Shown here piece after piece: positions 8,556 to 63,487 of a DNA stretch of 64,000 nt. The position numbers were made by a program, and so were the translations under genes. The notes under the pieces are model-generated. The model was not told where the DNA came from and did not search any database. It saw only the letters and a list, made by a program, of their open reading frames with translations. The stretch lies in assembly GCA_000004985.1 (NCBI GenBank), contig GG738921.1; one strand, 5' to 3'. This DNA is from Naegleria gruberi (lineage: Eukaryota). How positions within the stretch are numbered: position 1 is the stretch's first letter; each line of letters starts with the position of its first letter.

Positions 8556-8626
8556 TGCATTAGCCGGGAGTCGAACCCGGGTCACCAGCTTGGAAGGCTG
8601 GTATGATACCGTTACACTACTAATGC
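8556..8626 (-). tRNA. tRNA-Gly-TCC: tRNA-Gly (anticodon TCC).
   Basis: The reverse complement reads GCATTAGTAGTGTAACGGTATCATACCAGCCTTCCAAGCTGGTGACCCGGGTTCGACTCCCGGCTAATGCA. The 7-bp acceptor stem pairs. The anticodon loop CTTCCAA gives TCC. The T-arm is GGTTCGACTCC (B box). Confidence 0.9.
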
Positions 8627-8710
8627 TTTACATTAAGGTTATTCAAAATCACACTCTTCTTTATTATCACAACTAAGGCTCAATACTTTTTTCGAGCATT
8701 CAAATTGAAT

Positions 8711-24270: not shown

Positions 24271-24434
24271 CTCTTGCTTTATTTTTTTTAAAATTCTGTT
24301 TACAAAGAATTATTTAATGAAATAATCCACTTCCAAGTACCCAAATGTTCATGACATATATAATAATGATGATGACAGGTTTAAAGTTCCCCAAAATTAT
24401 TTCCATGAACATTTGAGTACTTGGAAGTGGATTC

Positions 24435-25522
24435 TCATCTTTGCATTTCAGTACTGTGTGAAATACAAGTATAGCCAGTGAGTATCATTATTTTAATTGG
24501 ATCGATAGTTCTATTCCATTCCAATAAGATACTCTCCTGAAAAACTTTAGTTTCATTTAGTCTCTTTAGGGCGCTTGTTTTAACAATGGATGCATTTTGT
24601 AATCGATGTAAAATGATTAGATTTTCAATGGATTTCTGTGCATTTTCAATGGAAATCTCAATTTCACCTCTTTTTAAATCAATCTTGTTGATTACGAAAA
24701 CTATCGAAAAAGAGTTTCGTTTTTTAAAACGAATTATATCACAAAGAATCTTGTTTAAACTTTGGACTGAATCCTTTTGATCCAAGCTACAAACAAGCAC
24801 GAAACACGACTGTTCCGTACACATTTTCCTAACTTCTTCTTCTCTTTTTTCCTTTTCGTCTTGCACTTCATAATAATCTTTTTCCATTATTAGAATGTTA
24901 AAATTACATTCAAATTATATTTTCGTACCTAGTTCTTTAACTCTAATAGTCAATTCTACACCATCAATCTCTAATTTTATCCTCCTTGAAGACAATATCT
25001 TCCTATTAGGCGATCTATCAAATAATCCATCAGCAACTCGCCTCACAATACACCTCTTTCCAACATTGTCAATTCCCAAAAGAAGAGCAAACATTTCCTT
25101 TTCTGGTTTGGATTTCATCCTTAATTTTCTCTTCATGCACGAAATTAAAACTTTTCTTCGCATTGAAACCTTTGGATTGGAAAGAATTTTGTAAATTGCT
25201 TCAAACTCATGATGGTGTTGTCTGAAATAGAGTGTATCCTTCATTTCCTTTTTCTGTTTCAAATTCTGTACATCTTTCCAGGTTTCCATGTCCAATTCCT
25301 TGTCCACATCACATTCATATCTAAACAATTTAAATTTCATCATGAAATAATTCCACCAAAACTCATCAAAATAATCATCAAGATCCTGCATATGCATTGC
25401 ATATTAAACATATCCCAATGATACCCAAGAATATCCAAATCATCATCTTGATCATTCCTAATAAACTTCATTATCAAGAGAAGAATTTCTGGAGGTAAGG
25501 AAGTAAAAAGTTCTCGTTTCAT
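24435..25522 (-). CDS. F-box-like N-terminus plus a divergent (possibly inactive) Ras-superfamily GTPase-like domain. Multi-exon; internal structure uncertain.
   Basis: Exon 25340..25522 has LPPEILLLIMKFI (F-box-like). Later exons carry a P-loop-like GIDNVGKR, then NKID (G4) and TSALK (G5), but no DxxGQ (G3). One 51-bp GTACGA..AAAAAG intron is found at about 24888-24938. A frame discontinuity near 25340-25397 is unresolved. Confidence 0.45.
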
Positions 25523-25712
25523 TTTTTTTTAGAAAAGTTCATCGGGTTTGAGGCATTTAAAAAAAATGAGGTACAAACTTTGATTTATATATAGCTCAAT
25601 ATAAATTATTAAAATTCAAAAATTGAGAATATTGTATAATGGTATGCCTAGGTTACAATTTGAAACAATGAGTGACTCAATTGTTATGATGATTAAAAAT
25701 TAATGTTATGAC

Positions 25713-26099
25713 TGCGTCGACCGGGAATTGAAATTCCTTTTTAGGAATATTATATTTAATATTTAAATAGTTTACAATATTGAATAATGAACAACGTGTA
25801 AATGTGTTGAAGTAGGGTACCCGTGAGTCGATTCACCATATTTGGAAAGGTACCATTCAAGAACAACAACAATAAATGTATTTAATATTAATTATTTGAT
25901 ACCGGGAGTCGCTTTTCCTTTTTGGGAATGTTGTATGTGTGTTATAAACTGGTCGACGCATTTAAAATTTTTTAATTTTTTTAAAAAAATGAAATTGGGT
26001 AACGGGAGACGGTTTACTATATATGGAACATTCAAACATACAATTGAACCCGGGTCACGGCGATGGCAACGCCGTATTCTACCACTAAACCATCGACGC
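25713..26099 (-). pseudogene. tRNA-Gly-GCC: tRNA-Gly (GCC) gene interrupted in the T-arm by a 309-bp insertion.
   Basis: The minus strand 26099->26042 reads GCGTCGATGGTTTAGTGGTAGAATACGGCGTTGCCATCGCCGTGACCCGGGTTCAATT. This covers the acceptor, A box, anticodon loop TTGCCAT and 5' T-stem plus loop. Unrelated sequence occupies 26041->25733. TTCAATT then appears again (25732-25726), followed by CCCGGTCGACGCA (25725-25713), the 3' T-stem plus acceptor that pairs with GCGTCGA. Confidence 0.8.
25733..26041 (-). mobile_element. 309-bp insertion inside the tRNA-Gly(GCC) gene, flanked by a 7-bp direct duplication TTCAATT. It contains two degenerate internal repeats carrying tRNA-end-like motifs.
   Basis: Target-site-duplication-like repeat of the T-loop. 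Internal motifs ATTCC(C/T)AAAAAGGAA x2 and GAATG.TCC...CG.CTC.CG.TACCC x2. Additional tRNA-like fragments GCGTCGACCAG.. and ..GCGACTCCCGG.. are present. Confidence 0.55.
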
Positions 26100-26325
26100 T
26101 TCACGTTCATTTGGAATGAAATGAACATCTCAAGAACAATAATTGCTTATATTTTAATACTGGATTTTTGTGAAACAATTAATCCATGAATGTGCAAAGT
26201 TTAACCGACCAATGCTACTTTGTGCCTCGAATGTACTTCCAAATTCAAATGGTCCTGCCTCAAAAGATGCTTCCAAATTAAGCAACGGGACACAGTAGTA
26301 ACTTTTGATTACGTAACAAAACAAA

Positions 26326-27059
26326 ATGCCTCACGATCCTACTCGTCTTCAACATTTAATCAAAAACTATTACAAGTCAGACTTGGAAAAGATTCACAAG
26401 AATTATGAAAGAATTTGTGATAGATACAATTTGGAAAAGAAGGATTTTCTGAATGATGTCTCTCTGTACAATCATTGTGATTTACTGAGCGTTTCCAATA
26501 TTTATTCAACCATCAGGAACGAATCATTAAAGATTATTCCAGTAGACTATGTGGAAACCTTCAAGAAGAGAAAGAGAAATCAAAACACCACCACTTTAGG
26601 TGAAGACTCTGACGAAACAGAAGCAAAATCTGCCAAAACATCATCCGACAAGACCTGTGCTCACTGTGGTGGCTCCGAATTCATCTTTGTTTGTAATGGT
26701 AACAGTGATGGCATGTATTTGGAGTTTCCAAATGGTAGAACAGTCTCTGGACAAACTCCACAGCTGACAGCATTAACAGATGGTGATGGAGTTTCTCTCC
26801 ATGTTTGTGTTGGTAAGTTTTCTTCTTCATCACTGGAATGTAATATTGTTATTATTATTTGATGAAAATTCGTGATGATATCTTATGATGATGATTAAAA
26901 GGATGTGGAATGGTTCATGGATTCAACTCTACCCAACTCAAGAGAGATTTGGAAAGGTACGAATTTGCTCTGGAAGATATGAACGAAGCTGATCAAGATG
27001 AATTACTCTTCGAAGAGGATGACAACAACAACAGCAAGAATAAACTTTCACCATGTTGA
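26326..27059 (+). CDS. Hypothetical protein with a C-terminal CxxC..CxxC zinc-ribbon. Exons 26326..26812 and 26902..27059; intron GTAAGT..TTAAAAG.
   Basis: Splicing joins ..CAHCGGSEFIFVC..LHVCVG to CGMVHGFNSTQLKRDLERYEF..* in frame. The tail is acidic. Confidence 0.6.
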
Positions 27060-27268
27060 AGGAAAACAGACTTTACATAATTCACACTTGTTCATTGTAT
27101 CATTCCCCACTTCAACACCTTGAAGATAAATCTGTTGAATGTACCTGAAGGAAAATATCAACGTGTAATTCGTTAAAGAATATTTTATTTTTTTTCTAAA
27201 TTTTTAAAAAAAATCATCAACATTCGTAACGGTAACTTTTGTGGTTCCTGAAAGATTGGTCTTCAATT

Positions 27269-29159
27269 TTATTTACTATTCACCAAGACAGGACTAAAGT
27301 TACCCTTGAAAGAAACAATGAGTACAAAGGCAATAATCAAAAATACAAAATCTGTCCACAAAATAATTGATGGAGCTAGAGGAGTACACAATTGCAACAC
27401 ATTAATATAAACCATGAAGAGAATACTCCACAAAGTAGTCAATGTACTTGAAATGGTCATGGTCGTAGATGGATGAACTGGATAGGTCGTATAGACAATC
27501 ATTTGATTCAACAATGGCATTGTAGGTACTGAAAACATTCCGATCAATACAAAGGACATTCCAGACAAGACTAACAAGACATCATTCTTCTGCCACAACA
27601 TTAATATACAGAACCATAGGAAGGCTAAACAAGCAGAGGCACTGGTAATGATTGTGATGAGTTTGAATTGTTTGGTCTTATCAAAGAGGATACTCAACAC
27701 GATGGAGGAAATTGTAGCAAAGACAATCAAGATAATATTCAAATTACCAGAATCAATGGCTGTATACTTGTTACCCTTGATGATTTGTTCCAAAATATAG
27801 ATGGATTGGAAGAAGGAATTGATGAGTGTGGAAGCAGCTAATAACATGAAGAAGGATGGTAATCGGATCAACTTTTTCAAACCAAAGACAAATGTTTGAG
27901 GAGGATAAACATCTTTTGGTTCTTCTTGTTTTGTCTTGGATTGTTTGGTTTCAGCTGCTGATGTTTCAAGGTCTTGATTGGATAATGGTTCTTCAGCAGT
28001 GTTGGAACCTTCAGTTAGAGATTGTGTGAGGTCACCATTAAAGCCAGGATTGGATTCTTCTTTGGTTGGTTCTGGAGCTATAGCAGGTGGTGTAGGTGGC
28101 TTACTCTTAAAGAAGAGCAAAACAAGAAAAACACACAAGGTTGCCATTACTCCTTGAATTCCCAAAAAGATGCCAAGGCCCAAATCTGAAATCTTTAAAT
28201 CCTCTTCACTTTCACTTCCAATGGTCATGAGACGAGGTCCAACAAGATAGGACAAGAGACTTCCGAATACACCTGAGAACAAGACAACAACCTGCACAAC
28301 TGTTCTCTCCTTATTTCCAAACCAAAAGACTCCAAACAAGTCACCACATTGAGTAATGAATGGTTGTCCACATGCAATGAAGATTTGTCCAATTAATGAA
28401 AGCCAAAATGAAGTTTCATTTCCCTATTATCATTCAAATTGTGGAGGTTGAATATGTGTAAAAAGGATATGTGAAATGTATGAAAACTTACTTGAATACC
28501 AATTAATCTAATCCATGCACCAATACATGTCAGTATAGAATATATAGAAACACTCCATTTTAAACCAAATCGTTTCAGAACGAATGAAACTAGAAAAGTA
28601 ATTGGAATAGTTGCAATTAAAAAGACCAAAGAAGTCATATTAATCTTCCAATTAGCATCAAGGCGGTAAAACTTCATCAATAGAGTTCTAATAGCATGGA
28701 CAATTTCATTAGGACACCACAAATTACTTTTGTTACTAGTACTCACCCTGAAGTTGTATAGGTCGACATGCAAATAATAGAAGTGACCATACATAATGCA
28801 AATATTGCTAATTGAAACCATCTTCTAATGTATAATTTAGGTTCTTGAGTTTGTTCTTGTTGTTGATGTTGACTCGGAAGAGGGGAGGACAAAATCTCTT
28901 CCTGTTGTTGTTCATCTTGTGCCTGCAAGCTACCATTATTAAGGGATGGATAGGAACCATCAAGCTCCTCTTTATATTGCAGAGTTTGATGAGGTTGCCT
29001 TCTCTCATCAAGGAGTTGTTCCCCGACATCTACTTCATATTGGTGATCTTTCATCATGCGACACTGCTGAATGGTGTAGTGAACTCTTTTTTTAAATAGT
29101 GAAATCATTTGTTGCTGGATCATCATTCTATCTCTCTTTGGATGTTTGTGCGCAGTCAT
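27269..29159 (-). CDS. MFS transporter of the FLVCR/MFSD7-like type. Multi-exon, with an apparent frameshift or unresolved junction near 28760-28821.
   Basis: Exons in ORFs 28743..29159, 28393..28821 and 27269..28339. FLVCR-like TM1-3 pattern: RRWFQLAIFALCMVTS.., ..SNLWCPNEIVHAIRTLLMKFYRLDANWKINMTSLVFLIATIPITFLVSF..CIGAWIRLIG. A GTAAGT intron follows IGIQ at about 28455. Confidence 0.65.
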
Positions 29160-29395
29160 GATGATGTTGAGTTCTTCTTTGGGTGTGTGAATTGTTTATT
29201 AAGGAAGATTAAGGGGTTAGATTCTGCTTGAGGAGGAAGAGGATGAGGGTTTATTCAACTTTCCAATTATCATGGTTGGATGGGGGTGGTAGCGAGAAGG
29301 AAAAGGAATTATGATAGATCAAACAAAGCAGATATGTCCCATGTATGTTATCATGTTAAGATAAAGATGCATAATGGTGATGAAGATAACATTGT

Positions 29396-31188
29396 TCATC
29401 TCAGATAAATATCACCATTCTTTTTGAATAGCTGATAGAGGTAGGCATCTCTTTGAGGAATTGGAAAACCATTCCTTTCATTCTCCTTCAAGTATTTGAG
29501 TCCAAGCTTGTAGAATTTACTGGCTCGGTTGGTAATGACCTTGTCCATCATTAATTTTGGAATGGATCCTTTCATGTCAATATAGTAAATCTCATGGAAT
29601 TTAGTTTCATTTTCCGAGAGGGATTCAAAGAACCAACCGCCCACTACACATGCCTTAATGATTTTCTTTTTGGATTTCTCTTGTTTTTCATTGTGTAATT
29701 GGTGCTCTGGATTTTCTTCCAAACACAACGAGTCACAACTCTTGAATCCTATAATGTACAGATTGCTCACTCGATCGTGTACTGAGCTGGTGCAGACAAT
29801 GATTTCTCGATCCTTGATTGGCCAAATGAGTTTGTACTTTTCATGATTTATGACTGATGTGAAGAGTTTGTCCTTTGTTTGAATGTGAGGCTCTTCAACA
29901 TATTTCACCGTTTGAATATCATAAATGTACTCATCTATCTTTTGTCTATATTCTTGATTGGTAAAAGTTTTCAAAACTTGTTTTACATTGTAAGGAAAGA
30001 GAATTTCAAATTTGAAAAATTTCAATCCAACACTATTTCCAAAATCATACTTGTCTTTTGTAAAGTAGCACTTGTATTGTTTCTGATTGACTGCCAAAAT
30101 CCATTCTCTATTGTTGATAGTTTCTCCACAAAACACTTTTCTTTTAAGGAAGGCAAAATCACCAAGTGAAAAGTTTTGATTTTTCAAATCGGCCATTGAT
30201 TCAACAGCCATATACTCTATACCTTCTTTGAGGGTCCCAATTTCATGTAGAATATCAATGGTCTTGCCACTTTTTATCAAGTAATTATGAAACAAGTCAC
30301 TTTTCAAAAAACCATGGAAATAATTCAACTTGAGTGATTCGTGAATAAACATTTCAACCTTTCTAAACAAGTTTTCTGGATTATCGGCATGCTCTTGGAA
30401 ACACTTTTTGAATGAATTGATGGTTTTCTCTTTCAAAGTGTGTGGTAAATTGATTCTTTAGGTGAAATATTGCAAATGAAAGTTTCAATAATGCTATTGG
30501 CAATTTTCTCAACCTTTTCGAATTTTTCCATTGTTACAAAAGAGCTAGACATCCGATCGTAATTTTTGTCTGAAATGTTGTGTGGAATCATTACACCGTT
30601 GTGAGCTATTTCATCACTGTCAATGACATCTAGAAATGTCATTGAAATTCCATCATGTGACAGCTCATCCTCATGGGATTCAACAGATGAAAGAGAAACA
30701 TTGGAAATTACAGAAGAGGAAGTATTCTTTCCTTCAATCAGTGAAGGGGGATTGAAACTAGAGGGAGTGGACGAAACCAAATACTGTTTACATATAAATC
30801 TGTAATGTTTGGCGCTTTCCAAGAATTCTACAGCTTCTTCCATCTTTTTAGTTAGTAGAAACTGCTTAAATATCGAATAGATTTGTTTGTGAGTGATAAC
30901 TGCTTCGTAGCTGTAATGGAAATTCGAAAGATCTTGTTCATCAATCACTTTACTATTCGAATGTTGTTTTGATGAGGAAGATGCTGAAGATATATCATCT
31001 CTGGAATGCTCAATCTCATATCCCTCGTCTATATCAAGTAAATGTTGAGTGGAAAAGAATTTTCCTGGTAAATGTGAAGTTTGGCTGATAGTTGTGGACA
31101 TTGAAGACATGGGTAAAAGATCAAGGTGTGATGGTTCACTGTTGCTCTTGAAGGCAGAAGTGTGATGCATGGTTTGACTTGATGGCAT
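29396..31188 (-). CDS. Second RGS plus START-like domain protein, paralogous to the gene at 11989-13740. Apparent 1-nt frameshift at about 30433-30440.
   Basis: ORF 30433..31188 has an RGS-like segment (YEAVITHKQIYSIFKQFLLTKKMEEAVEFLESAKHYRF). ORF 29396..30436 has a START-like region (..REIIVCTSSVHDRVSNLYIIGFKS..GGWFFESLSENETKFHEIYYIDMKGSIPKLMMDKVITNRASKFYKLGLKYL). The two ORFs overlap by 4 nt in different frames. There is no room for an intron. Confidence 0.55.
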
Positions 31189-31323
31189 TTTGTTTTTTCA
31201 AAGAAAAGTCATTTCAGTAAGTTTCGCCGTAAAGCAGGTTCTAATTGGTTAAATTTTGAAATCCTATTTAAGGCAAAAGACCGCCATTAGGTTATATCAG
31301 TGATTTTGAGATCTCAATCGTAA

Positions 31324-31395: not shown

Positions 31396-32355
31396 TAATT
31401 TTTTATTTTTGTCCATTTTCCATCGACCTTTTCACGAGTCTTTGATGTATTTTTCATCCTTCAAGTTTGCTCCTTAATTATTAGTACATTTATGAGAAAT
31501 GAATATTTAAATTGATTTTAAATTGTAAAAAAATATTTCTAATAATTTCTTCTTGATTGTTCTCGTCTAATAATCCTTGACCAAGAATTCTTTCCATCTA
31601 TTTGCAAACCTAAATTCATTCTATCATGTAATATTGCTCTATTTCATTGTACTTATTCAAGAAGTTTCACTCATTTCAGGCATTAGGAAGATTTCTAATA
31701 TCAATGGCAATATTATATTGTTTCGAACCCTTTTTGGCTAATTCATCAACATGTCCTTTTACCTTTTCCAATTTAATTTCCAAATATTGTTCTATCAAAT
31801 TCATCTTTAAAAATTGAAAATTTCCCATCATATCTTGGATTTAGAAATAACATAATGAAGGAGAAAGCAAAAAGAAAAAACTTGTGGCAGAGAAACGATA
31901 ACTATGGACTTGGAACATTGCAATCACGATTTGGTTGTAAATCTATTCATTCAAACATCCTGCTTCCTCTTATTCCTCTTCTGCTTCCTCTTCTCTATTG
32001 TATCCAAATGGATGACAAGTTTTTCTACTCATTAAGGCAAGACAACAATTTACAACATATTCATAGTAAGGCTTTCCATCTACATGGGTTAGTTTGGGTT
32101 GATAGTAGGCTCTTTGTATTGTGCTTCCTGAACTTGTAAGTGATTGAAATGTATTTTTGAAAACATAGAATGATTCTGTGTGGAAATCAGAATTTGCAAA
32201 TATTGCTTTAACTTTGATTGATTCCAATTCGTTTTCTTTGTCATTGTAATCAAATGAAGATAGATATAGGTATATTGATGAGTTTTCTCTAAAATCCTTA
32301 ACCTCTGTTAATTATCGCGTAGAGAAATACAGTGTTTGTAACTAATTTCATAAAA

Positions 32356-33264
32356 CTACTTACTTTTGGCAACACCCAAGTGATCGAAACAAGCTGAAAA
32401 CTTGGCCCCAAATGCTGTGAACTTATCTGAATAACAACATCTATCAATATTATCAGGACTAACACGAAATGTCAAAGTATGTATGGATAATGGAAACTCT
32501 GCTGCCCATCTATGAACAATAGGAGGATAATTAGTTGAGGATAATTCCTTTCTTCCAACATGGAACATTTCAATATTGTTGAAAGGTTTGAATGGTTCTT
32601 CCTCAACTTTCTTCATCCCAACCACAAATTTAAACTTGAGAAAATCATCATCATCTGTTGAGTAAGCGGCAATATGAGTCTTATCAAGAAATACTCCATA
32701 AGATGCTTCAGGCATAATGAATTTTCTGCTGTGAACAAGATAGGATTGAGGTTCTAGATCAAAATTACAAATAAAAAAGTCGAGTCTTATTCTATCAAAT
32801 ACCTGTTGCTTATTCTCTACTGGAATTGTGGAATTAAGTGTTAAAAATACTGTAGAATTGCCCAAACATTCATCTTCATCATCTGTTTCCGATTAGACAA
32901 TTAGAAAATTAATAAAACGCAACATACCTGGCAGAAGGTCCACAACCCACTCGTGTCCAAACTGTATGAAAGGTTCAGAATAATAGCTAGTATTAAAAGG
33001 GCCAGTTTTTGGTACCTTAACATCTGCAATATGAATGGTATAATCTTTTTTCTGTGGTGGAATATTCTCCTGCACAAATTGGTAAAGGTCTTCTCCTATA
33101 GGTTTCAATATTGGCTCAATTTCTGTTTCTGTGAACTCTGTATCTATTTTTGCTTTCTTTTCTGCAATAAGTTCTAAGGTTTTCTTAGAAGATTTGAAAA
33201 ATTCATTGGACATAACTAGGTTGATAAAGTCCAAAATGCTATCATTTTGTGGGAAATGATCCAC
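32356..33264 (-). CDS. Hypothetical protein. Exons 32893..33264 and 32356..32865; intron GTATGT..AACAG. Possibly further 3' exons toward 31970-32227.
   Basis: Two ORFs joined by a 27-bp-spaced GTATGT/AG intron. There is a GTAAGT donor after ..HLGVAK at about 32360. No recognisable domain. Confidence 0.4.
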
Positions 33265-33275
33265 TACTGCAATAA

Positions 33276-34063
33276 NNNNNNNNNNNNNNNNNNNNNNNNN
33301 NNNNNNNNNNNNNNNNNNNNNNNNNNNNNNNNNNNNNNNNNNNNNNNNNNNNNNNNNNNNNNNNNNNNNNNNNNNNNNNNNNNNNNNNNNNNNNNNNNNN
33401 NNNNNNNNNNNNNNNNNNNNNNNNNNNNNNNNNNNNNNNNNNNNNNNNNNNNNNNNNNNNNNNNNNNNNNNNNNNNNNNNNNNNNNNNNNNNNNNNNNNN
33501 NNNNNNNNNNNNNNNNNNNNNNNNNNNNNNNNNNNNNNNNNNNNNNNNNNNNNNNNNNNNNNNNNNNNNNNNNNNNNNNNNNNNNNNNNNNNNNNNNNNN
33601 NNNNNNNNNNNNNNNNNNNNNNNNNNNNNNNNNNNNNNNNNNNNNNNNNNNNNNNNNNNNNNNNNNNNNNNNNNNNNNNNNNNNNNNNNNNNNNNNNNNN
33701 NNNNNNNNNNNNNNNNNNNNNNNNNNNNNNNNNNNNNNNNNNNNNNNNNNNNNNNNNNNNNNNNNNNNNNNNNNNNNNNNNNNNNNNNNNNNNNNNNNNN
33801 NNNNNNNNNNNNNNNNNNNNNNNNNNNNNNNNNNNNNNNNNNNNNNNNNNNNNNNNNNNNNNNNNNNNNNNNNNNNNNNNNNNNNNNNNNNNNNNNNNNN
33901 NNNNNNNNNNNNNNNNNNNNNNNNNNNNNNNNNNNNNNNNNNNNNNNNNNNNNNNNNNNNNNNNNNNNNNNNNNNNNNNNNNNNNNNNNNNNNNNNNNNN
34001 NNNNNNNNNNNNNNNNNNNNNNNNNNNNNNNNNNNNNNNNNNNNNNNNNNNNNNNNNNNNNNN
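33276..34063. other. Assembly gap (788 N). Shorter 50-N gaps lie at 9130-9179, 16568-16617 and 56270-56319.
   Basis: Runs of n in the sequence. Each gap truncates an adjacent gene model. Confidence 1.
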
Positions 34064-35523
34064 CAACATTCTCGTTGGTTACCCTTACATTAAGAACCTT
34101 TAGAGAACTCCTAGGTAAATGAGGAATAACTGAAGCTTCAAAGGCCTCACCTAAAACTTCTTCCAGTTTGCAATTTACTATTGCTTGGATATTTTGATGA
34201 ATAATTTTATCTTCGAACTGTTCACCTTGCAGATCCAAAATTTTTAAATCTTCACAGTCATGGAAAAAGAATGGTTCCTCTTCAATATCAATATAAGTAT
34301 CAGTATGGTACAGCAGTTTTTCCAAATGTTGTCCTATTAAAGCCTTAACAACATTAAAACAAATTATTTCGTTAGTACCTCCATAAATTTTAAGAATTCT
34401 GAGTTGTAAACAACTTTTCAATTGTTCCAAAATATCTTCTTTTAAAATTGTAAATTGAAAATTTCTCGGAAATTGTAATGTTAATTTAGACAACTTAGAG
34501 AGATTACAGAGACAACCTAGCAATGTATCTAACTCATATGAGGGATCATATTCATTAGTGAAAACAACATTCAATCTTTCTAATGTTCTTGAAAGGAGAC
34601 CCAAATTCTTTTGAAGATTCAATATTGTTTCATCAGAAGTTGATTTCCATGCCACCTTGAGCTTTTTCAAATGGGAGAATGAATTAGATGAAAATACTGA
34701 AAAGAATGAACCAGTTATATTTGATAGTGTGTCTCGAGCAAAGAGGGAAAATTTTTCAATCTTTTGTGAAACATTGGAAAGTACTAATGACAGGATAGAA
34801 TCATCAAAATAACTAGGGTTGATAACCAAAACTGTTAAATTTGGACATTGTTGTGTGATATCCTCAATATTCTTGCGTGTTAGTGGATAGTTAGAACGAA
34901 ACTCTGTCAAAGATTGAGGAAACCCAATCACGGTTTGATCCATTTCTTCTTCATGGAGCTTTCGTTCAGATACAAGACGCATCAACTCGAGAGTTTTTAA
35001 ATTTTTAAACTCTTTCAACAAGTGAAAATATTCAGTTTTAAGATTAGTAAGTGTCAATACTTTCAAAGATTCCAACAATGGACTTGCATTCATTATCCAC
35101 TCAACAATGAAACTTCCAGACACGCAAGTTGCAGCACTCAACCTCAACTCTTCCATTGACAATCGTCCAAGCTCACACAAACCCACATCTAAAAAAGCAT
35201 ATATTAATCGACCATTCATAAATAATAATAATAAATTGATAACAATTACCTGTTAATGACCAGAAATCCAAAGAATTGAATGTAAACAAATCAATAACCT
35301 TCAATCGTTTCATCTTGATCAGTAAATTATCCACAACTCCTCCGATCCTATGATTATCCAATCCGATGTGAATAAAGTATTGAGTCTTGTTATTCAGGAA
35401 ATAATACCAGATCCACTCGGCAAAAGTCTTTGAAATAAATCTCATCTGCAGCAAGTGGTATTCATTGAAAAAACATAGCAAGTGTTCGGCACACAAATCA
35501 CAAGGTAAATTCTGAATTTTCAT
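34064..35523 (-). CDS. F-box-like plus leucine-rich-repeat protein. Intron at about 35191-35251 (GTAATT..TTTTTAG). The 3' end is lost in the 788-bp gap.
   Basis: Exon 1 (MKIQNLPCDLCAEHLLCFFNEYHLL..) is F-box-like. Exon 2 has LRR-like repeats (LxxLxxLxLxxL). The ORF runs into N-gap 33276-34063. Confidence 0.5.
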
Positions 35524-48449: not shown

Positions 48450-50040
48450 ATATTACAATTCCATTAGAAACATGTGTTTATTCTACCACGTAAAAACTTC
48501 CTTATGGAGATGGAATCTAATTCCATTTCTTTCATTTGCATCCCAAATGGCATTCGAAACTGAAGTTACCAATTGTTCTGGACCACAAACTAAAACACCA
48601 ACATATGCATTCAATTCTCCTCTTTCTTTCATTTCCTTTTTCACTTGTTCCAAGAATTGTTTTGGATTGGCTCTTCCTTTATGAATAAATGCTGTTTGTT
48701 GTGAATTTTCTTCTTTCATTTTGGAAATGAAAATATTTGGTTTTAAATTCTTATTTCCATTCGTTTCCAAGAGTTGAGGAAATACTTGAATCATATCAGT
48801 GGTTGGAATTGACCAACAAGTATAAACAGTCTTATCTTGAATATTCTTTTCCAACAAGTGTGAATAAATTGAATGAACTGGTGTAATACCAATTCCACCA
48901 CCAAACATGACAATTGTCTTGTATCTCAATAATGGAACTGATAATGATCCATAAGCACCTTCAACTCTACAAATTAATTCATTGGCTGATTGAGCCTTCT
49001 CTTGAGCAATTTTTGCAACTTGTTTTGACCATCCACTTCCAAAATTCTTTACATGAACTGTAAATTCTAATTCCTTCTTTTTAATCATTCCACCATCAAT
49101 TTCCTTACAACTACTAACTGTGATTGGATGGTGTTGATATTTTGAAACAGCAGGAATGTATAAGAATATGAAATGTCCCATTGAAGGATTACTGCCAAAT
49201 GTCAAGAATGGTTTTCTCATTGTAATGGTTGTAACTTGACTCTTTTCATCATATTTGATTGAATCAATTTTGGTTGGAATACCAAATCCAAATACCACTC
49301 TCAAAAATACATCAAACAGATATAATAAAATTGATAATGCCATATAAGGTAATAAATTAATATATCCAGAACCATGAATAATTGATAAAATGACAATTAA
49401 AATGGACAAGATGACATGTGAAATTAAAAAGACCTCCCATAGCTTTCTTCTTATGACTGGGAATGTCATTAACCAAAGAATAGTCATGAAAAACCATGCA
49501 ATAATTCCCAAAATTGGAAATGTTGGAGATGTCACATCAACTAAATATAATCCAGATGCATTATAATGAACAACCATTGCAATTCCATGAGCAGTTACAA
49601 AAAACCATTGTAAAATACCCAACCATCTGTGATATTTAATTGCTCTATCAAATGAAATTCCAAATAAAACTTGTAAAACTGAATATCTCGTGACTGGAAA
49701 TAAAATTAATCCAAAATTGAAAACACAAACAGAAGCAAATGCTTTTCCAGCTTCAGCTGATGTTGCATTCACATATCCAAATGCAAACCAAATGGCCACA
49801 AGAATCCAATAACATGAAATTACAACAGCTTCACCCAAAGTTAAATCTAAAATGGTATTAATGTAAATTCCAATAAATTTCAAATTGACTTGTTTGGTCA
49901 ATCTTCTGTACAAGATCAAATCAAGGAATAGATTTGGATTCACTCTTGGTCCAATCACACTCAATAAGAATCCACCAATAACCAACAATCCACAAATGAA
50001 TGCAGTAGCAATCAAATGCCATCTGTAGGAATTGGCAAGT
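48450..50040. repeat. Inverted-repeat arm (partner 59150-60740). Near-identical 1.6-kb 3' portions of the two DOMON-ferric-reductase paralogs.
   Basis: The encoded C-terminal about 530 aa are identical except GIPTK/GVPTK, KIAQEK/KVAQEK, EKNIQDK/EKNVQDK and KMKEEN/KMKDEN. Identity continues about 30 bp past the stop codons and then ends abruptly. Upstream of about 50030 and 59160 the copies are only about 70-80% identical. Confidence 0.85.
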
Positions 50041-51576
50041 TTGGTCAATGAGTTCATTGAGATACTTCCATCCTTAATGTTGCCAGTAGAAGAACCACAT
50101 GTGGCCAATTCACTGCCAGGAGGAGCTGCCAAGTGTGCCAAAGTAGCTGTTTGTAAAAAGTTAATCATGACATTTTTGCCTCTGTAATTGTGGACATATT
50201 CCATGGATGTAGATGTTTTGGCTATAGCCCAAGAAATTGAAATTTGTGCATTTGTAAATAAGTGATCCAATGAATCCTTAGTATTGACCAAACGTGTCCA
50301 TTTCAAATGAAGTTCATAATTTCCACTCACAGATCTTAATCCTCCATTTTTGGAAATGAAATCTTGAGATGAATCTAATGTTGGTGCTTGAAGATTACCT
50401 TGCATGTATGTGTCTAATATAACTGGGTTTCCACTTGAATCCACATATCCAAACATTGTATCAGCAGTGTCCATTCCAGAGTTGGTTCCATGATTAAATC
50501 CAATTGATGCATAGCCATAAATTCCTGTGGCAATCAATCCAAATTCAATAATTGGTACATTTGCATCATTTGGATTTGTTAAAACTTTCCAATACAATTT
50601 CAAAGAATCAGAAGTTCCATAATTAGCAACTAACTTGTAATTAGCTGTAGGATAATCAGCAGAGTTGACCCACTGAGTTAAAATACTTTGTGAATATCCA
50701 GTTTGAAGTGAACAGGTCGAATTACTACTACTAGAACCTCCATCCGAAACTACTGGTTGACTTGGCAATACTCCATACTCACCAGTAGCATAACCAGCTG
50801 AAAGGAAATTCAAACTTGGACCTTTGCCAGTGCTGGTATGTCTAACCATTCCAGTACTGGTGGAGTGGAGTGCCCAGGAAGTTTTCATGACTGCATTGGT
50901 GAAAATGACATCGTGGGAATCTCCTGTTTTAACGAAACGTGTCCACTTGATATGTGTCTCACCTGTGGCCGAGTTGTATCCACCATTTCTTTGAAGGATA
51001 TCATCGGAAGCATCACTCACTGGTGATTGTGGCTTTGCAACCATCCATGCATCCATGATGGTTACACTTTGAGAAGCACTATTATAATACCCGAAAACTT
51101 TATCAATTCATCATCATTAATAATATTAAGTTAATATTGCCAATAACAACTTACTGGTATCACCCTTCATTGGATCTCCATTTAAATAACCAAAGCAAAA
51201 CGAGACGTAACCTCTCGTGTTTTTGGCCACAGCTCCAAATTCCAAGATTGCATCATTAATATCAGAGCTTTTTTCATTCCTTAATAATTTCCAATATAGC
51301 TTGAGATTGGAACTGAATGTGGCCACATTTCCCGATGGATAATCAGTGGAAGATACAAACTGAGTATTCATACTCTGACTGTATACAATAGTTGCCTTAC
51401 GTTCCGAACCTTTTATTCTTCTAGTTGTATTATAATTATTATAAGTATCTAATATTTTATAATGATGATGATGAAACTCTTGAAAGCAACAACAACATCA
51501 TCATCATCGTCAATACAATAATCAAACTCCTTAGCCATTGACTCGAAATTAAATGATGATTCTTTGATAACGCCAT
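48483..51576 (-). CDS. Ferric-reductase/NOX-like transmembrane oxidoreductase with two N-terminal DOMON domains (copy A). Exons 48483..51097 and 51155..51371, plus a 5' signal region up to ATG 51576 that is out of frame.
   Basis: Intron 51098-51154 (GTAAGT..GATAAAG). DOMON-like repeats x2. A 6-TM ferric-reductase core with His pairs. FAD motif HPITVSS and NADPH motif GGGIGITP. The N-terminal exon MALSKNHHLISSQWLRSLIIVLTMMMMLLLL.. stops in a (TCA)4 run before reaching the DOMON frame. Confidence 0.75.
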
Positions 51577-55096: not shown

Positions 55097-56078
55097 TTAT
55101 ACAGTTGTTTTAGCAGTAAATTCCTCTTCCAAACCTTCCAAAGTAGAAAATCCATCTGATAATGTAATGATTGTTACATCACACAAATCTGTCTTTTCGT
55201 TAAACTTGTAAATAAAGTGAGTGCCAACATTATTTTCATCCTCATAGAATAGAACGTTGTAATCAGCTGTTCCATTTCCAGAAATTACACTAGGATACAC
55301 TCTATACTTGACATTTCGTTTTAATATCAAGTCTCCTGATTGTTTAAAGTCAATATCTGAAAGTTGAATTTCAAATTTGCTAGGTCCTCCTAAAATTACA
55401 AATTTTTCTATTCTCAATCGTTAGAATATTCACAATTCTCGTTCAAACTTACCTTTGGCGAGAATGGCAACCTTATTTTGAATCAAATAAGCATCGAATA
55501 AGGAACTAGGATTGATTCCGTGCAAACTCAAATCAATTTTGGTCCATCCACTGTGCATTTGTGCTGAACCAAGATTTCCAGTAATGTACAATTCATTATT
55601 CTCGGTACAAATTAAAGAAACCCATTGTCCAGCACTAATAGCCTTAATCTTACTATTTGTTGGAACAGTTAGAGGCATTGGATCATAAATCTTGTTTGGT
55701 GTTGCATACCCCAATTGTTGATAATCATTAGATCCGAAAACAACTCCACTATCATCCTCAAATATTACTATACAATAAGCATAACCAGAAGCAATCAGTT
55801 TGACTGATTTCCCCTTCACTAATGGTGATGCTATTTCAACAGGTGTATGAATATCATGTTCAGAATCTGATGGTTGTTTAGCAAACTGTGCAAGACCTGT
55901 ATTTCCACAAAAATACAATCTCTTATCAGGTACAGTCACAAAGTAGGTGTGGCCATATCCAGAGTAGGCAGATCCGAATGCCTGTACACCTTCTGGAACG
56001 ACAACCTTCTTGGCCTTGATTTGTTTGGTATAATCGAGTGAATTCTTATCATCAGTTCCAGTTTGTCCCCTTTATAAT
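55097..56078 (-). CDS. RCC1-repeat (beta-propeller) protein. Intron at about 55418-55465. The 5' end lies in or beyond the gap at 56270-56319.
   Basis: RCC1-like blades (VVFGSNDYQQLGY, LYITGNLGSAQMHSGW, YFCGNTGLAQF). ORFs 55430..55939 and 55097..55417 are joined by a GTAAGT..AATAG intron. The open frame extends upstream to about 56078. Confidence 0.55.
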
Positions 56079-57719: not shown

Positions 57720-60708
57720 ATGGCGTTTTATGTTATTCGAAACTCGCAGCTCTTTCTTCTGTCTGCACTCTTGTTGGTAACAGTTTTAGCATGTCATGAC
57801 CCAGCACATGCAGCAAACGTTACCTATAGCCAAAGTATTGAAACTCAATTCGTAAATCCCTCTGATTATCCAGCAACAAACGTTGCCTCTTTCGGTTCGA
57901 ATCTGAAACTTTATTGGAAACTCTTAAAAAACGAAAAGAGTTCAGATATTAATAATGCCATTCTAGAATTTGGTGCTGTTGCTCTTCGTACTAAAGGTTA
58001 CCTTTCCTTTTGTTTTGGTTATTTAAGTGGAGATCCAATGAAGGGAGATACCAGTAAGTTATTTTTTTATTCGAAAGTTCTAAAGCATTAATATTCAATC
58101 TAAAGTCTTTGGTTTCTTCAATCAAGCTTCAGGTAGCATCACTGTTATGGACGCTTGGATGACTAACAAACCTGCACCACCAACCAGTGATCCCTCTGAT
58201 GATATCATCCAGAAGAATGGAGGGTTTCGAACAGTTAATGGAATATCCGAAACTCACATGAAATGGACACGTTTCGTCAAGACCAACGATACTAGAGATG
58301 TTGTATTTACTAACACTGCCATGAGAATGTCCTGGGCTATTCACTCAACTAGTACTTCAATGGTGGAACATACCAGTCAAGGAAGTGGCACAACTGTTAA
58401 CTTTCTTTCGGCTGGATTCGTAACTGGTGAATATGGAAAGCTTCCACAACCACCAGTGATTGCAACAGGAGGTGGAAATAACTGTTCACTTCCAACTGGA
58501 TATTCACAAAGTATTTTAACTCAGTGGGTCAATTCTGCTGATTATCCTGCAGCTAATTACAAGTTAGTTGCTAATTATGGAACATCTGATTCTTTGAAAT
58601 TGTATTGGAAAGTTTTGACCAATCCAAATGATGCCAATAATCCAATTATTGAATTTGGATTGTTGGCTACAGGTATTTATGGTTATGCTTCACTTGGTTT
58701 CAATCATGGAGCTAGTTCAGGAATGCAAACTGCTGATACCATGTTTGGTTATGTAGATTCAACTGGTAAGGCAGTGATTATTGATGCTTACATGCAAGGA
58801 AATTTGCAAGCACCAGCTCCAGACACCACTCAAAATTTTATTTCAAGCAATGGTGGTTTGAGATCTGTCAATGGCAATTATGAACTCCATTTGAAATGGA
58901 CACGTTTGGTAAATACTAAGGACGCTATGGATTATACATTCAGCAATGCACAAATTCCAATTTCATGGGCTCTTTCCAAAACTTCTACTTCCATTACTTC
59001 TGTTCACAGTTACAGAGACAAGAATGTCATGATTAATTTCATGCAAAATGGAGCTTCCACTGAAATGGCAGCTCCTCCTGGCAGTAGTTTGGCATGTGGA
59101 TCAAGTAGTGGTTCACAAACTGGAACTGTTGTCATTGATGAAGGTTTGAAATTAGCAAATTCCTACAGATGGCATTTGATTGCTACTGCATTCATTTGTG
59201 GATTGTTGGTCATTGGTGGATTCTTATTGAGTGTGATTGGACCAAGAGTGAATCCAAATCTATTCCTTGATTTGATCTTGTACAGAAGATTGACAAAACA
59301 AGTCAATTTGAAATTTATTGGAATTTACATTAATACCATTTTAGATTTAACATTGGGTGAAGCTGTTGTAATTTCATGTTATTGGATTCTTGTGGCCATT
59401 TGGTTTGCATTTGGATATGTGAATGCAACATCAGCAGAAGCTGGAAAAGCATTTGCCTCTGTTTGTGTTTTCAATTTTGGATTAATTTTATTTCCAGTCA
59501 CAAGATATTCAGTTTTACAAGTTTTATTTGGAATTTCATTTGATAGAGCAATTAAATATCACAGATGGTTGGGTATTTTACAATGGTTTTTTGTAACTGC
59601 TCATGGAATTGCAATGGTTGTTCATTATAATGCATCTGGATTATATTTAGTTGATGTGACATCTCCAACATTTCCAATTTTGGGAATTATTGCATGGTTT
59701 TTCATGACTATACTTTGGTTAATGACATTCCCAGTCATAAGAAGAAAGTTGTGGGAAGTCTTTTTAATTTCACATGTCATCTTATCCATTTTAATTGTCA
59801 TTTTATCAATTATTCATGGTTCTGGATATATTAATTTATTACCTTATATGGCATTATCAATTTTATTATATCTATTTGATGTATTTTTGAGAGTGGTATT
59901 TGGATTTGGTGTTCCAACCAAAATTGATTCAATCAAATATGATGAAAAGAGTCAAGTTACAACCATTACAATGAGAAAACCATTCCTAACATTTGGTAGT
60001 AATCCTTCAATGGGACATTTCATATTCTTATATATTCCTGCTGTTTCAAAATATCAACACCATCCAATCACAGTTAGTAGTTGTAAGGAAATTGATGGTG
60101 GAATGATTAAAAAGAAGGAATTGGAATTTACAGTTCATGTCAAGAATTTTGGAAGTGGATGGTCAAAACAAGTTGCAAAAGTTGCTCAAGAGAAGGCTCA
60201 ATCAGCCAATGAATTAATTTGTAGAGTTGAAGGTGCTTATGGATCATTATCAGTTCCATTATTGAGATACAAGACAATTGTCATGTTTGGTGGTGGAATT
60301 GGTATTACACCAGTTCATTCAATTTATTCACACTTGTTGGAAAAGAATGTTCAAGATAAGACTGTTTATACTTGTTGGTCAATTCCAACCACTGATATGA
60401 TTCAAGTATTTCCTCAACTTTTGGAAACGAATGGAAATAAGAATTTGAAACCAAATATTTTCATTTCCAAAATGAAGGATGAGAATTCACAACAAACAGC
60501 ATTCATTCATAAAGGAAGAGCCAATCCAAAACAATTCTTGGAACAAGTGAAAAAGGAAATGAAAGAAAGAGGAGAATTGAATGCATATGTTGGTGTTTTA
60601 GTTTGTGGTCCAGAACAATTGGTAACTTCAGTTTCGAATGCCATTTGGGATGCAAATGAAAGAAATGGAATTAGATTCCATCTCCATAAGGAAGTTTTTA
60701 CGTGGTAG
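57720..60708 (+). CDS. Ferric-reductase/NOX-like transmembrane oxidoreductase with two N-terminal DOMON domains (copy B). Exons 57720..58053 and 58133..60708.
   Basis: Signal peptide MAFYVIRNSQLFLLSALLLVTVLACHDPAHA. Intron 58054-58132 (GTAAGT..GCTTCAG). The domain order matches copy A. The C-terminal about 530 aa differ from copy A at only 4 residues. Confidence 0.85.
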
Positions 60709-60754: not shown

Positions 60755-63487
60755 CTAGAATAAAAACTCGCAGTCAGCAAATCTTGAACTATCCACTAAT
60801 TTTTCAAGTTTTCTAATCATGAAAATCCAACTATTGTTGTGTTCTGTCTTTTTGGTAAAAAACACAATCATATTATCCAATCCAATACTCAGGTTCAAAT
60901 CATATCCATATCTAGCTAAGTATGGAGCAAATCTAACCTTTAGCAAAGACAAATGATTAAATTGAACCATTTTTTCACTCTCTTTGATAAATTTAGTTCC
61001 ATCCTCTTGCTCGTCTTCATTTTCAGGTACAGCACTTATTGATCTGATTCCAGATGAGTCTCCAGAGAAGAAGAATGTTCTATCATCTCTTATTGAGCTA
61101 TTAGCTTGATGATATTGGAAAGGAACTAACATTTTGTTCAAATAGTTAGAATTGTGAATACCCGTAATAAATCTAGAATCTAAATTTTTCGTAGCATCTT
61201 TAGAACATTCCAGTACCATCGAATATTGTTCAGAAAAAATTGATGAAGGACGGAGCTTGTTCAAAGTCTCATGTATCTTGAAGTGAGTTGTGAAACTGTA
61301 AAATGACGGGTAGCCAATCTCACTATAAGCATTACTTCCTAAAATAAAGCTGGTATAGTCTTCTAGTGAAAAAATAACACCTTCTGGTAATTTAGAAATA
61401 TTTACAATATTACCATGTAACCTATTTTCCAAAGTATTAAAGTACATTTTAAATTCAAAATCAGATTTTTCAATCAAAATTGGATAAGGAAGAGGATTTT
61501 GAATCCTAGTCAGATCATTACGTTCAATGAGTGTCAAAACTTCTAAATTTTCCTTCCAGTTATCGTATGCATCTCCAATTAGTATTGATCCTGATTCTGT
61601 AAGAACATCCGTAAAGGCTCTAAAGTATTGTGTATCGCTATCAAAGTAGGCATCGACTGGTACAACATGTCGTTTTGACTCATTATTAATATCATTTCTA
61701 TTCCTGAAATTTTCGCATCCTTTTGGCCCTATTTGCAGGAAAGGATTCAGAAGAGAAAAGGTCAGTAAATGTGCAGCGTAACCCTTTGCTGGGAAGTGAT
61801 AAAGTTTGTTACATTTAGTAACAATAAATGATTCATAAAATGTGTTAACAAGTTGATGAACTCCTTGATAACCTTTCTGAGTAAAGCAAAATTGATTTTC
61901 AAAGAAAATGAGATCCTTTCTCTTATGTGAAATGTTCAAAACAAACAGTTCAGTGATATTTTTTGTCAAATCAATTTCACTGAAAATGTCTAGAGAAAGT
62001 AGAGTGCATATTTGAATTGCGAATTGATAATTTGTAATTATTTCAGTGAAAATCAAGTATGCTAAATCTCTCAAAAATAGTGTTTCAAATGAAGAATACT
62101 TTCCTGCTTGAAGATATCCATCCTTAAATACTGCTATTAATAATTGAATAATATCATTGGAAGTGATATGTTCTTCAACAGATGATATCAGTTGGATAAG
62201 TGTTTCAAGTCTTTTCATGGCATTTTGACTTTGAATAGTTTTATCCTCTACTTTAGGTGCTTCATTAATTCCTTCCAGAACAGTGAATCCAATTTGTTCC
62301 ATTTCGAATGAGAATGAGTTAATCCAATCTTTGATAATATGGAAGATATCTAAAGAATTCATTATTTGCCAAAGCCAATAGCACGTAGATTTCTGGACTA
62401 CATATCCATTAAATATCAAGTCCTTGCTTCTGCCAATATTTTGTGAAATTAAGTATTCCCTAATGCTTTCTGTAGTGACTGTTGAGATTCTACAAAGAAT
62501 AAATTGTGAGCTTTCAAAATTATGTAATCTTCCAGAAAAGTAAATGTTTCCTTGCTCTGTTACAAGTATTGTGTGCTGAGAACCGCATGCAACTTTGACT
62601 GGTCGTTCATTGTGAAATAAAGAAGAAGTTACTTGTTGAGCTTTGCATGGTTCTGTATGTGAACAATTTGGAATTGATAATTGTTTTTGTAAATTTTGCC
62701 CAAAAGCATACAATTGATTAGATTCGGTAATGAAGAAGGCAAAATCAGCTCCGTTATGAATTGATTCAATTTTTTCTTCCACCATACAATCACCATCGTA
62801 TAGTGAAATCTTTGATAGAGTTTCCACAGACTGTATTCCATCTCCAACATCACCTGTATTTAAAAATATTATTATTGTTTCGAATAGAAATTACAACTTA
62901 CCAATAATATAAACTTGTGAATCACATTCATTTAAAATCATGGTACCATTTTCCAAACTAACAATCTGTTTTATCCTAAACTTTGCACCTTCCACTCTAT
63001 CAGGAATTTTAACTCCGATCAAGTATGTCATCAAGCTGTCATCCTCTGCCAAATCCAATCCAAAGTTCTTCTCCTTCTCTCCCAACTCTCCATTCGGTTT
63101 TAAATCAGCAAGTTCCGCAAAATTTACTCTCCTTTGCATCCTTTGTACAAATGATTTAATTTGTTTCTCATAATCATCAATATCAATCAAACATTGTGTA
63201 TTAGTATTTCTACCAGTAACAAATACAATATTTTGCAACGGATTATCCTCATCACCTTCTTCTCTCCAATATTTTCTCTTCTTTGAACCATCACCATCAC
63301 CACCAGCACCACTACCATTACCATCATCACTCTCATCCATATTTTCGGAAGAGATCGCCCGATCAGATGAAAATAATTCCACTTCACCAGTACCTTCCGG
63401 AATGATCGACGTGGAAAATCCTAACAAACTGGCCTGTAAAGCAAAATTTAGAGCAGCCAAATGGATCGGAGCGGCTGATGAAAGCAT
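60755..63487 (-). CDS. Large RCC1-like-repeat protein with a long C-terminal region of unknown function. Exons 62902..63487 and 60755..62853; 48-bp GTAAGT..ATACAG intron.
   Basis: N-terminal blades (IVFVTGRNTNTQCLI, LYAFGQNLQKQLS, VKVACGSQHTILVTEQGNIYFSGRL). The exons join in frame (..YIIG|DVGDG..). Confidence 0.5.

Follow-up and report, generated by a model that had tools for sequence, protein, structure and literature searches.

Known elements and introns that interrupt tRNA genes

To our knowledge, the Dada elements are the only DNA transposons that integrate inside small-RNA genes. They are compared here with a transfer RNA (tRNA) gene for glycine, tRNA-Gly(GCC), which is split in its T-loop by a 309-bp insert and lies in a 64-kb stretch of Naegleria gruberi DNA (GenBank assembly GCA_000004985.1, contig GG738921.1), the whole of which is called the window below. 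Dada elements are recognized by a 6-7-bp target duplication inside tRNA or small nuclear RNA genes and by the absence of terminal inverted repeats (Kojima & Jurka 2013, PMC3706591; Kojima 2022, PMC8869645). They insert inside multicopy small-RNA genes, tRNA-Gly among them, and the one insertion seen here likewise sits in a tRNA-Gly gene, with an exact 7-bp duplication, TTCAATT, at both junctions. Internally deleted, non-autonomous Dada derivatives occur at the same sites, and tandem copies as well as junctions with the 'wrong' flank have been reported (PMC3706591, PMC8869645). The likeness has its limits. The known tRNA targets of Dada are nucleotides (nt) 8-13 and the anticodon stem/loop, whereas the T-loop is interrupted here, and the known elements are 4.7-11 kb long with a DDE transposase bearing a DxxH motif and zinc fingers, whereas the insert is 309 bp and non-coding, and the open reading frames (ORFs) of at least 120 amino acids (aa) in the window include no transposase. 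A clear sub-terminal inverted repeat mirrored in the target was not found for the insert. Dada is unreported from Naegleria or other Heterolobosea, and our literature search turned up nothing on interrupted tRNA genes or elements of the Dada type in Naegleria.

Other mobile elements settle next to genes transcribed by RNA polymerase III. The Dictyostelium elements TRE5/TRE3 and DGLT-A and the yeast elements Ty1/Ty3 target such genes in association with the B-box/TFIIIC region; they land tens of bp up- or downstream, carry long terminal repeats (LTRs) or poly(A) tails and produce 4-6-bp or variable duplications. The present insert is unlike them in that it lies inside the gene and has neither LTRs nor a poly(A) tail. 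Closer in position are prokaryotic integrative elements, since the tyrosine integrases of prokaryotes reportedly, as Williams described in Nucleic Acids Res in 2002, cross over in the 7-nt T-loop or the anticodon loop of tRNA genes. Here too the 7-nt T-loop is found at both junctions, flanked by symmetric T-stem arms. In contrast to the prokaryotic case, the locus is eukaryotic and nuclear and has no integrase gene, the insert brings no replacement tRNA 3' end, and the arms on the insert side, GGAAT and GTATG, do not resemble T-stem arms. An integrase attachment site with a replacement tRNA 3' end was rejected because the arms do not fit.

A different kind of precedent is offered by ectopic bulge-helix-bulge introns and by split or permuted tRNA genes, which are described from Archaea, Cyanidioschyzon merolae and nucleomorphs (PMC4033280, PMC3978253, PMC3728597). 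As in these systems, the coding sequence is interrupted outside position 37/38, and a helix, a 3-nt bulge, a 4-bp helix and a second 3-nt bulge can be drawn at the junctions. The locus differs from them in the 316 nt that separate the tRNA parts, in the presence of a T7 run, in a weak, all-A-U helix with an extra 12-nt loop and in being a single case. This class of intron is unreported in the lineage.

In view of these comparisons, our best explanation is a recent staggered-cut insertion of a non-autonomous repeat associated with tRNA T-loops, which would be Dada-like in behaviour only; we give this reading a probability of roughly 0.4. Very probably a single T-loop insertion inactivated the gene copy, and the split copy is most likely a dead gene made by insertion and not the carrier of an exotic intron. 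The gene is one member of the multicopy nuclear tRNA-Gly(GCC) family of N. gruberi.

Anatomy and transcription of the split gene

The locus is read on the minus strand from 26099 to 25713, 387 nt in total. Its 5' piece, GCGTCGATGGTTTAGTGGTAGAATACGGCGTTGCCATCGCCGTGACCCGGGTTCAATT (26099-26042, 58 nt), corresponds to nt 1-58 of tRNA-Gly(GCC) and spans the 5' strand of the acceptor, the D arm, the anticodon arm with GCC, the 5' strand of the T-stem and the full T-loop, TTCAATT (26042-26048). The 309-bp insert follows at 26041-25733 and starts with GTATGT. The 3' piece, TTCAATTCCCGGTCGACGCA (25732-25713), opens with the second TTCAATT (25732-25726) and continues with CCCGGTCGACGCA, which supplies the 3' strands of T-stem and acceptor and the discriminator A. 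The bases flanking the two copies differ, so that the direct repeat measures exactly 7 nt. All this agrees to the base with the initial annotation, which had given the same coordinates, 58-nt piece, insert length and 7-nt duplication, and the anatomy bears out its view that the T-loop, and not the canonical intron position, is interrupted. A T5 run 14-18 nt beyond the tRNA 3' end (25695-25699) is the gene's own RNA polymerase III terminator. The B box is severed after GGTTCAATT. In place, the split gene is called neither by ARAGORN nor by Rfam at the gathering threshold and lacks the contiguous cloverleaf of a functional tRNA-Gly(GCC); the 5' part alone scores 18.8 bits with the Rfam tRNA model, which is below threshold.

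Removal of the insert together with one copy of the repeat leaves 71 nt with a canonical tRNA-Gly(gcc) fold according to ARAGORN. Intact relatives were sought by scanning JGI metagenomes with 19 nt from the variable-loop and T-arm region, which matched 30 contigs. One of these, L021 (36% G+C), is an environmental Naegleria-like contig that carries a tRNA-Ile(AAT) gene and then an uninterrupted tRNA-Gly(GCC) gene, with T5 runs after the latter. The joined 71-nt sequence is identical to this tRNA-Gly(GCC) gene at 71 of 71 positions, so that the match is not due to chance; taken separately, the 5' part is 100% identical to positions 204-264 of the contig and the 3' part to positions 258-277. The flanks of L021 are unlike the window, and it therefore represents a different locus or species. 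The intact paralog with the same TTCAATT loop for which the initial annotation had proposed to look was thus found on this contig. The comparison shows the split pieces to be an unmutated copy of a normal Naegleria gene, TTCAATT loop included.

The remaining 29 contigs (JGI Ga0224501 / Ga0224511, L003-L020 and L022-L032) carry the 19-mer CCGTGACCCGGGTTCAATT within a conserved repeat of ~42-46% G+C that continues into ...GAGTATTTCAAGGGATTTTTCCCTGGCTGATC... This repeat is a tRNA-derived family of the short interspersed element (SINE) type from some animal present in the sediment samples and is unrelated to Naegleria.

T-runs serve as terminators of RNA polymerase III, and each of the five intact Naegleria tRNA genes seen is followed by such a run, T4 to T6 in length. 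The insert of the split gene itself contains a T7 run (25983-25989, minus strand, followed by A7), a predicted terminator ~52 nt past the first T-loop, and a second run, T4, at 25967-25964. Read-through of the insert by RNA polymerase III is unlikely, because a T7 run is a strong stop for this enzyme. With the B box cut and a terminator inside the insert, the copy is most likely dead.

The duplicated T-loop could nevertheless be viewed as part of a functional split gene, from which 316 nt would be removed as an ectopic intron of the bulge-helix-bulge type, or of which the pieces would be transcribed separately and joined as in archaeal split genes. Both tRNA pieces are perfect although the insert looks old, and the block that precedes the 3' piece resembles a tRNA 5' flank. 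In the RNA, the two copies of UUCAAUU permit a T-stem, a UUC bulge, a 4-bp AAUU:AAUU helix, a second UUC bulge and a GUUCC:GGAAU helix, a bulge-helix-bulge-like motif that is possible because AAUU is self-complementary. Cleavage in both bulges would yield a correct T-loop, and in a mini-substrate the central pairs of this relaxed version of the motif have a probability of ~0.45. However, such geometry arises automatically from duplicating this T-loop. The central helix is composed of A-U pairs throughout, a 12-nt loop interrupts the motif, and the folding of the full RNA favours other pairings by ~20 kcal/mol: the 387-nt RNA reaches -81.0 kcal/mol as compared to -60.5 when constrained to the cloverleaf, pairing of the internal TGCGUCGACC with the tRNA 3' end displaces the cloverleaf, and the motif is absent from the minimum-energy fold. 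Furthermore, the T7 and T4 runs should halt RNA polymerase III, against transcription through to the 3' piece, and that piece has no A box of its own. A length of 316 nt is far beyond that of known ectopic tRNA introns, and the five other Naegleria tRNA genes seen are all free of introns. We consider a functional split gene very unlikely.

The exotic intron that the initial annotation mentioned as an alternative is therefore weaker than was allowed, because of the internal T7 terminator, and owes what small probability it keeps to the motif formed by UUCAAUU. Slighter still is the chance that a free-living heterolobosean possesses a working split tRNA gene, with pieces kept perfect by selection and joined at this motif. 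Joining would then mean either that a 316-nt intron is removed from the T-loop or that separate transcripts are united.

Tandem architecture and origin of the insert

Read in the orientation of the gene, the insert is a decayed tandem array of two ~181-bp units, A (26041-25901) and B (25900-25733, running on into the tRNA), each composed of two ~90-bp subunits. End-to-end alignment of the units gives a score of 63, compared to 24.5 +/- 4.4 and a maximum of 46 in shuffles. They are 61% identical overall and include two better-kept blocks; the best-kept direct repeat, D1, covers 36 nt at 78% identity with a spacing of 181 nt. Direct-repeat matches at the locus number 51, against 10.4 expected. 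The two degenerate internal repeat pairs that had been pointed out in the initial annotation are real by these measures.

Every subunit contains a common ~16-nt block, then a T-loop-like 7-mer, and then CCCGGT or a near version of it. This gives four ~32-nt blocks, spaced 100, 81 and 100 nt, which can be aligned with one gap only and all of which lie on the minus strand. X_A (25998-26028), TTCCATATATAGTAAA-ACCGTCT-CCCGTT, aligns with X_B at an offset of 181 nt. Y_A (25898-25928), TTCCCAAAAAGGAAA-AGCGACT-CCCGGT, is a fossil copy of the junction of insert, T-loop and T-stem, being related to the real junction by repeat D1 with 78% identity over 36 nt. X_B (25816-25847), TTCCAAATATGGTGAA-TCGACTC-ACGGGT, and Y_B (25717-25747) were recognized by repeat and profile comparison. 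The latter is the real junction and consists of TTCCTAAAAAGGAAT, which is the end of the insert, followed by TTCAATT-CCCGGT, so that it ends with 13 bases of the T-loop and T-stem of the tRNA itself. The pairing of Y_A with Y_B and of X_A with X_B is solid. A 17-mer built on Y_A, GWRAANCGACTCCCGGT, has three matches in the window (128 kb of strands) where 0.31 is expected, and all three are inside the insert on the strand of the gene.

Other parts of the insert recall the ends of a tRNA. The last 10 nt of the tRNA recur, inverted and without mismatch, as the decamer TGCGTCGACC (25960-25951). This decamer belongs to TGCGTCGACCAG (25949-25960, minus strand; repeat I3, 17 nt at 82%), which can be read as an inverted tRNA 3' end (10/10, then 1/2) or equally well as a decayed 5' end, GCGTCGA..GTTTA. 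The segment AGCGACTCCCGGT (25913-25901) is T-arm-like. Such tRNA-end-like fragments had been noted earlier and can be confirmed, and the accompanying guess that the insert belongs to a tRNA-derived or tRNA-targeting repeat family is strengthened by the three further degenerate junction copies. A general tRNA-likeness of the subunits is not claimed, as the best local alignment between tRNA and insert stayed within the range of shuffles.

The age of the array relative to the gene can be judged from its state of decay. The internal 7-mers have a state in common, ..CGACT or CGTCT, which recalls the T-loop TTCGACT of the tRNA-Gly(TCC) gene at 8556-8626 and not the TTCAATT at the real junction. Between Y_A and the real junction, 4 of 7 positions differ in the 7-mer as compared to 2 of 21 in the flanks (Fisher p = 0.02). 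If the divergence between the units, at 61%, had arisen in place, the chance of finding 78 of 78 tRNA bases unchanged would be ~5e-8.

A mechanism should account for the diverged array, the perfect tRNA pieces and the exact duplication. In the insertion reading that we prefer, the array would have existed before it was joined to the gene, because its units have diverged to only ~61% identity and none of the 78 tRNA bases has changed, and because the internal 7-mers are TTCGACT-like and the real junction is TTCAATT. The joining to an intact tRNA-Gly(GCC) gene would be recent, with its breakpoints exactly at the two borders of the T-loop, start and end, and would involve a staggered 7-bp cut and fill-in, as carried out by a transposase or integrase. 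The same sequence end, the 16-nt block at the right end, would have met a tRNA T-loop more than once, since fossil junctions sit inside the insert. This suggests a repeat of low copy number that is associated with T-loops, non-autonomous and mobilised in trans. RNA polymerase III starting from this copy would stop at T7, ~52 nt into the insert, without giving a full precursor, and glycine decoding would rely on intact paralogs.

Several observations weigh against this insertion reading. Simple cut-and-paste leaves the six T-stem bases (CCCGGT) in the fossil junctions unexplained, and an extra step would be needed, such as tandem duplication at an earlier site or composite mobilisation. The homology between X and Y blocks is weak on its own (E ~1-3 in leave-out profiles); in these profiles the other block type ranks first or second among the non-training matches in the 128 kb of strands. 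The insert has no terminal inverted repeats, and blastn with word size 7 and nhmmer profiles detected no other copy of it in the window outside the locus. Transposase, integrase and reverse transcriptase are all missing from the window ORFs of at least 120 aa. A protein-space search with the translated small ORFs across the locus and the neighbouring ORFs, concatenated, gave no match, the junction patterns had no match in viral contigs, and in prokaryotic genomes they matched only one coding region, in Algoriphagus, by chance. The content of transposable elements in N. gruberi was put at only 0.28% in one survey (bioRxiv 10.64898/2026.06.24.734286). Finally, two similarities in the gene flanks may speak for a local origin. 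The 17 nt immediately before tRNA nt 1, TTCCAAATGAACGTGAA (26100-26116, minus strand), found by a pattern search of the window, resemble the 16-nt block of the subunits; the flank-motif pattern, which was written after the matches had been seen, has three matches in the window, all at the locus, where 0.25 is expected. Further away, GTGTCCCGTTGCTTAATTT (26275-26293, minus strand), an X-block-like 19-mer outside the insert and ~180 nt upstream of the tRNA gene, is identical to X_A at 15 of 19 positions. It is the sole other match with up to 4 mismatches to the X_A 19-mer on both strands of the window, a match reached in 1 of 300 shuffles, and lies near the start of a divergent ORF (26326-26862).

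These flank similarities lead to the possibility of an old local rearrangement, in which the 3' part of the gene and its flanks were tandemly duplicated in place with a period of ~90 bp and then ~181 bp, the copies decayed, and gene conversion by intact paralogs kept the outer pieces identical. Fission yeast provides a documented case of conversion between dispersed tRNA genes. The repeats are all direct and in the orientation of the gene, their enrichment extends beyond the insert, and besides the two flanking motifs this scenario directly explains the CCCGGT of the T-stem in the fossil junction. However, efficient conversion needs more homology than the 20 nt of the 3' piece. This piece is perfect all the same, and the state common to the internal copies is not that of its T-loop. 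Tandem duplication alone does not give complementary pieces that overlap by exactly the 7-nt T-loop. The flank similarity is also unexceptional when compared to AT-rich spacers elsewhere in the window. A copy of the ~70-nt 5' flank of the gene within unit B was rejected for that reason: it beat shuffles, but other AT-rich window spacers match unit B equally. From the flank similarity only the 17-nt motif abutting the gene was retained, as suggestive. We consider the local rearrangement unlikely. The degenerate repeat family may, judging by the X-block-like 19-mer, extend beyond the insert.

Break-repair capture is another route to such a structure. Here a break in the T-loop would have been filled with a fragment of a tRNA-related tandem repeat from elsewhere in the genome, and the 7-bp repeat would result from fill-in of staggered ends or from microhomology. 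The insert begins in the middle of a subunit and lacks terminal inverted repeats, its source is not in the window, and the perfect tRNA pieces imply a recent event. At the point equivalent to the start of the insert, unit B reads TTTATTGTTG, which resembles the left junction, TTCAATTGTATG. On the other hand, the right end of the insert coincides exactly with the boundary between the 16-nt block and the 7-mer, a boundary that recurs three more times and looks site-specific, and an exact 7-bp duplication is unusual for filler-DNA repair. Like the local rearrangement, capture during repair strikes us as improbable.

The insert has no meaningful ORF, and a search of Rfam with E values up to 10 returned no family, group I introns included. 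A number of other identities were considered and rejected. A group I or other structured intron does not fit, as apart from the missing Rfam match no register within TTCAATT ends the intron in G. A spliceosomal intron could start at GTATGT, but no 3' site ending in AG restores the tRNA. A tRNA-derived SINE or non-LTR retroposon is not indicated, since the Rfam tRNA model is silent in the insert and neither end, on either strand, has an A-rich or simple-repeat tail. For a solo LTR, the single TG...CA register (TGTATG...ATTTCA) leaves the unlike flanks TCAAT and ATTCC. A templated local duplication from a source within the window was dismissed because blastn with word size 7 and nhmmer found no source outside the locus. 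The segment TTGAATGTTCC at insert nt 7-17 corresponds in part to an inverted form of GGAAT+TTCAA, the sequence of the right junction, and no copy of the segment mirrored in the target at equal distance was found.

Host, surroundings and significance

The window has ~35% G+C and is dense with ordinary eukaryotic genes, including those for actin, ABC and cation transporters, RGS and RCC1 proteins, ferric reductases and a dynein-type AAA protein. The tRNA has an ORF 230 bp upstream whose translation is 100% identical to a predicted Naegleria gruberi protein, and the ENA metagenome contig L001 (ERZ929261, run ERR1078381) is 97.4% identical to window positions 27001-30965. The host is therefore N. 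gruberi, a heterolobosean amoeboflagellate, and the dictyostelid context that the initial annotation had brought in was wrong. A second contig of the same metagenome, L002, encodes a much more distant Naegleria-like homologue of the neighbouring membrane-protein gene, with 53% protein identity. When this gene was used to look for an orthologous or allelic locus, L001 was found to stop at 27001 and L002 to contain no tRNA. Close (L001) and distant (L002) relatives are thus present in the public reads of one environmental metagenome.

That the 97.4% identical contig ends short of the locus leaves some room for an assembly artefact, in which the tRNA pieces would come from different places or the insert would be chimeric. 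Misassemblies, however, join identical repeats, and the internal repeats here are only 61-78% identical. The junctions, moreover, occur at a precise 7-bp duplication in a unique intergenic spacer between ordinary genes. An artefact is extremely unlikely.

The tRNA genes compared have similarities in their 5' flanks. The sequence GTGATTTTGA(A/G)AT occurs ~24 nt upstream of the tRNA-Gly(TCC) and tRNA-Arg(CCT) genes (8627-8650 and 31300-31323), a similar TTCTTGAGAT is found upstream of the split gene (26125-26142), and TTAAGGCAA precedes tRNA-Arg(CCT) as well as the two tRNA genes of L021 (20-46 and 180-206 of that contig). All tRNA genes compared are preceded by ..RAA. These shared motifs may be upstream promoter elements for RNA polymerase III in Naegleria.

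The next gene downstream of the split tRNA shares its strand and encodes a divergent Ras-like GTPase (24435-25522, minus). It is read in at least two ORFs that are 27 nt apart (24888-24914), presumably due to a very short intron or a frameshift, and a further 60-aa ORF is present upstream in the same gene region (25340-25522). Between this gene and a DUF4116 gene there is an AT-rich, near-perfect palindrome (24317-24438), which matches the mir-3145 hairpin model on both strands with 34 and 30 bits. These scores are far under the 98-bit threshold, and the palindrome is therefore a long inverted repeat and not that microRNA. Elsewhere in the window, two paralogous genes of the ferric-reductase/NADPH-oxidase type with DOMON, Ferric_reduct and FAD/NAD-binding domains (48483-51056, minus, and 58147-60708, plus) are positioned ~7 kb apart in opposite orientation, each near an RCC1-repeat gene (55430-55939 and 60755-62827). 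The two ferric-reductase/RCC1 pairs look like an inverted segmental duplication. In the region 32000-34100 the G+C content falls to 21% and long ORFs overlap (33242-34069, minus; 33247-34122, plus; 33264-35219, minus), which looks like a low-complexity, simple-repeat coding tract.

The significance of the split tRNA-Gly(GCC) gene depends on the nature of the repeat that interrupts it. If the insert is a one-off dead copy, the case is ordinary and matters mainly for annotation: such a locus is missed by tRNA finders and should be counted neither as a gene nor as an intron. Most likely, the locus is a recently killed gene copy holding an unusual tandem repeat associated with tRNA T-loops, and the question of interest that follows is whether a T-loop-specific mobile family exists. 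It is doubtful whether the insert is a mobile element specific for the tRNA T-loop (B box), which would make it the first of its kind in eukaryotes. Very few elements insert within small-RNA genes, and if a repeat family landing in T-loops is involved, it would extend this group by a new target site, the B box/T-loop, and by a new eukaryotic lineage, Heterolobosea. Such a family would also be a rarity in N. gruberi, whose genome otherwise has few transposable elements. In that case the fossil junctions would show an element picking up pieces of its target, which is a possible route to tRNA-like repeats.

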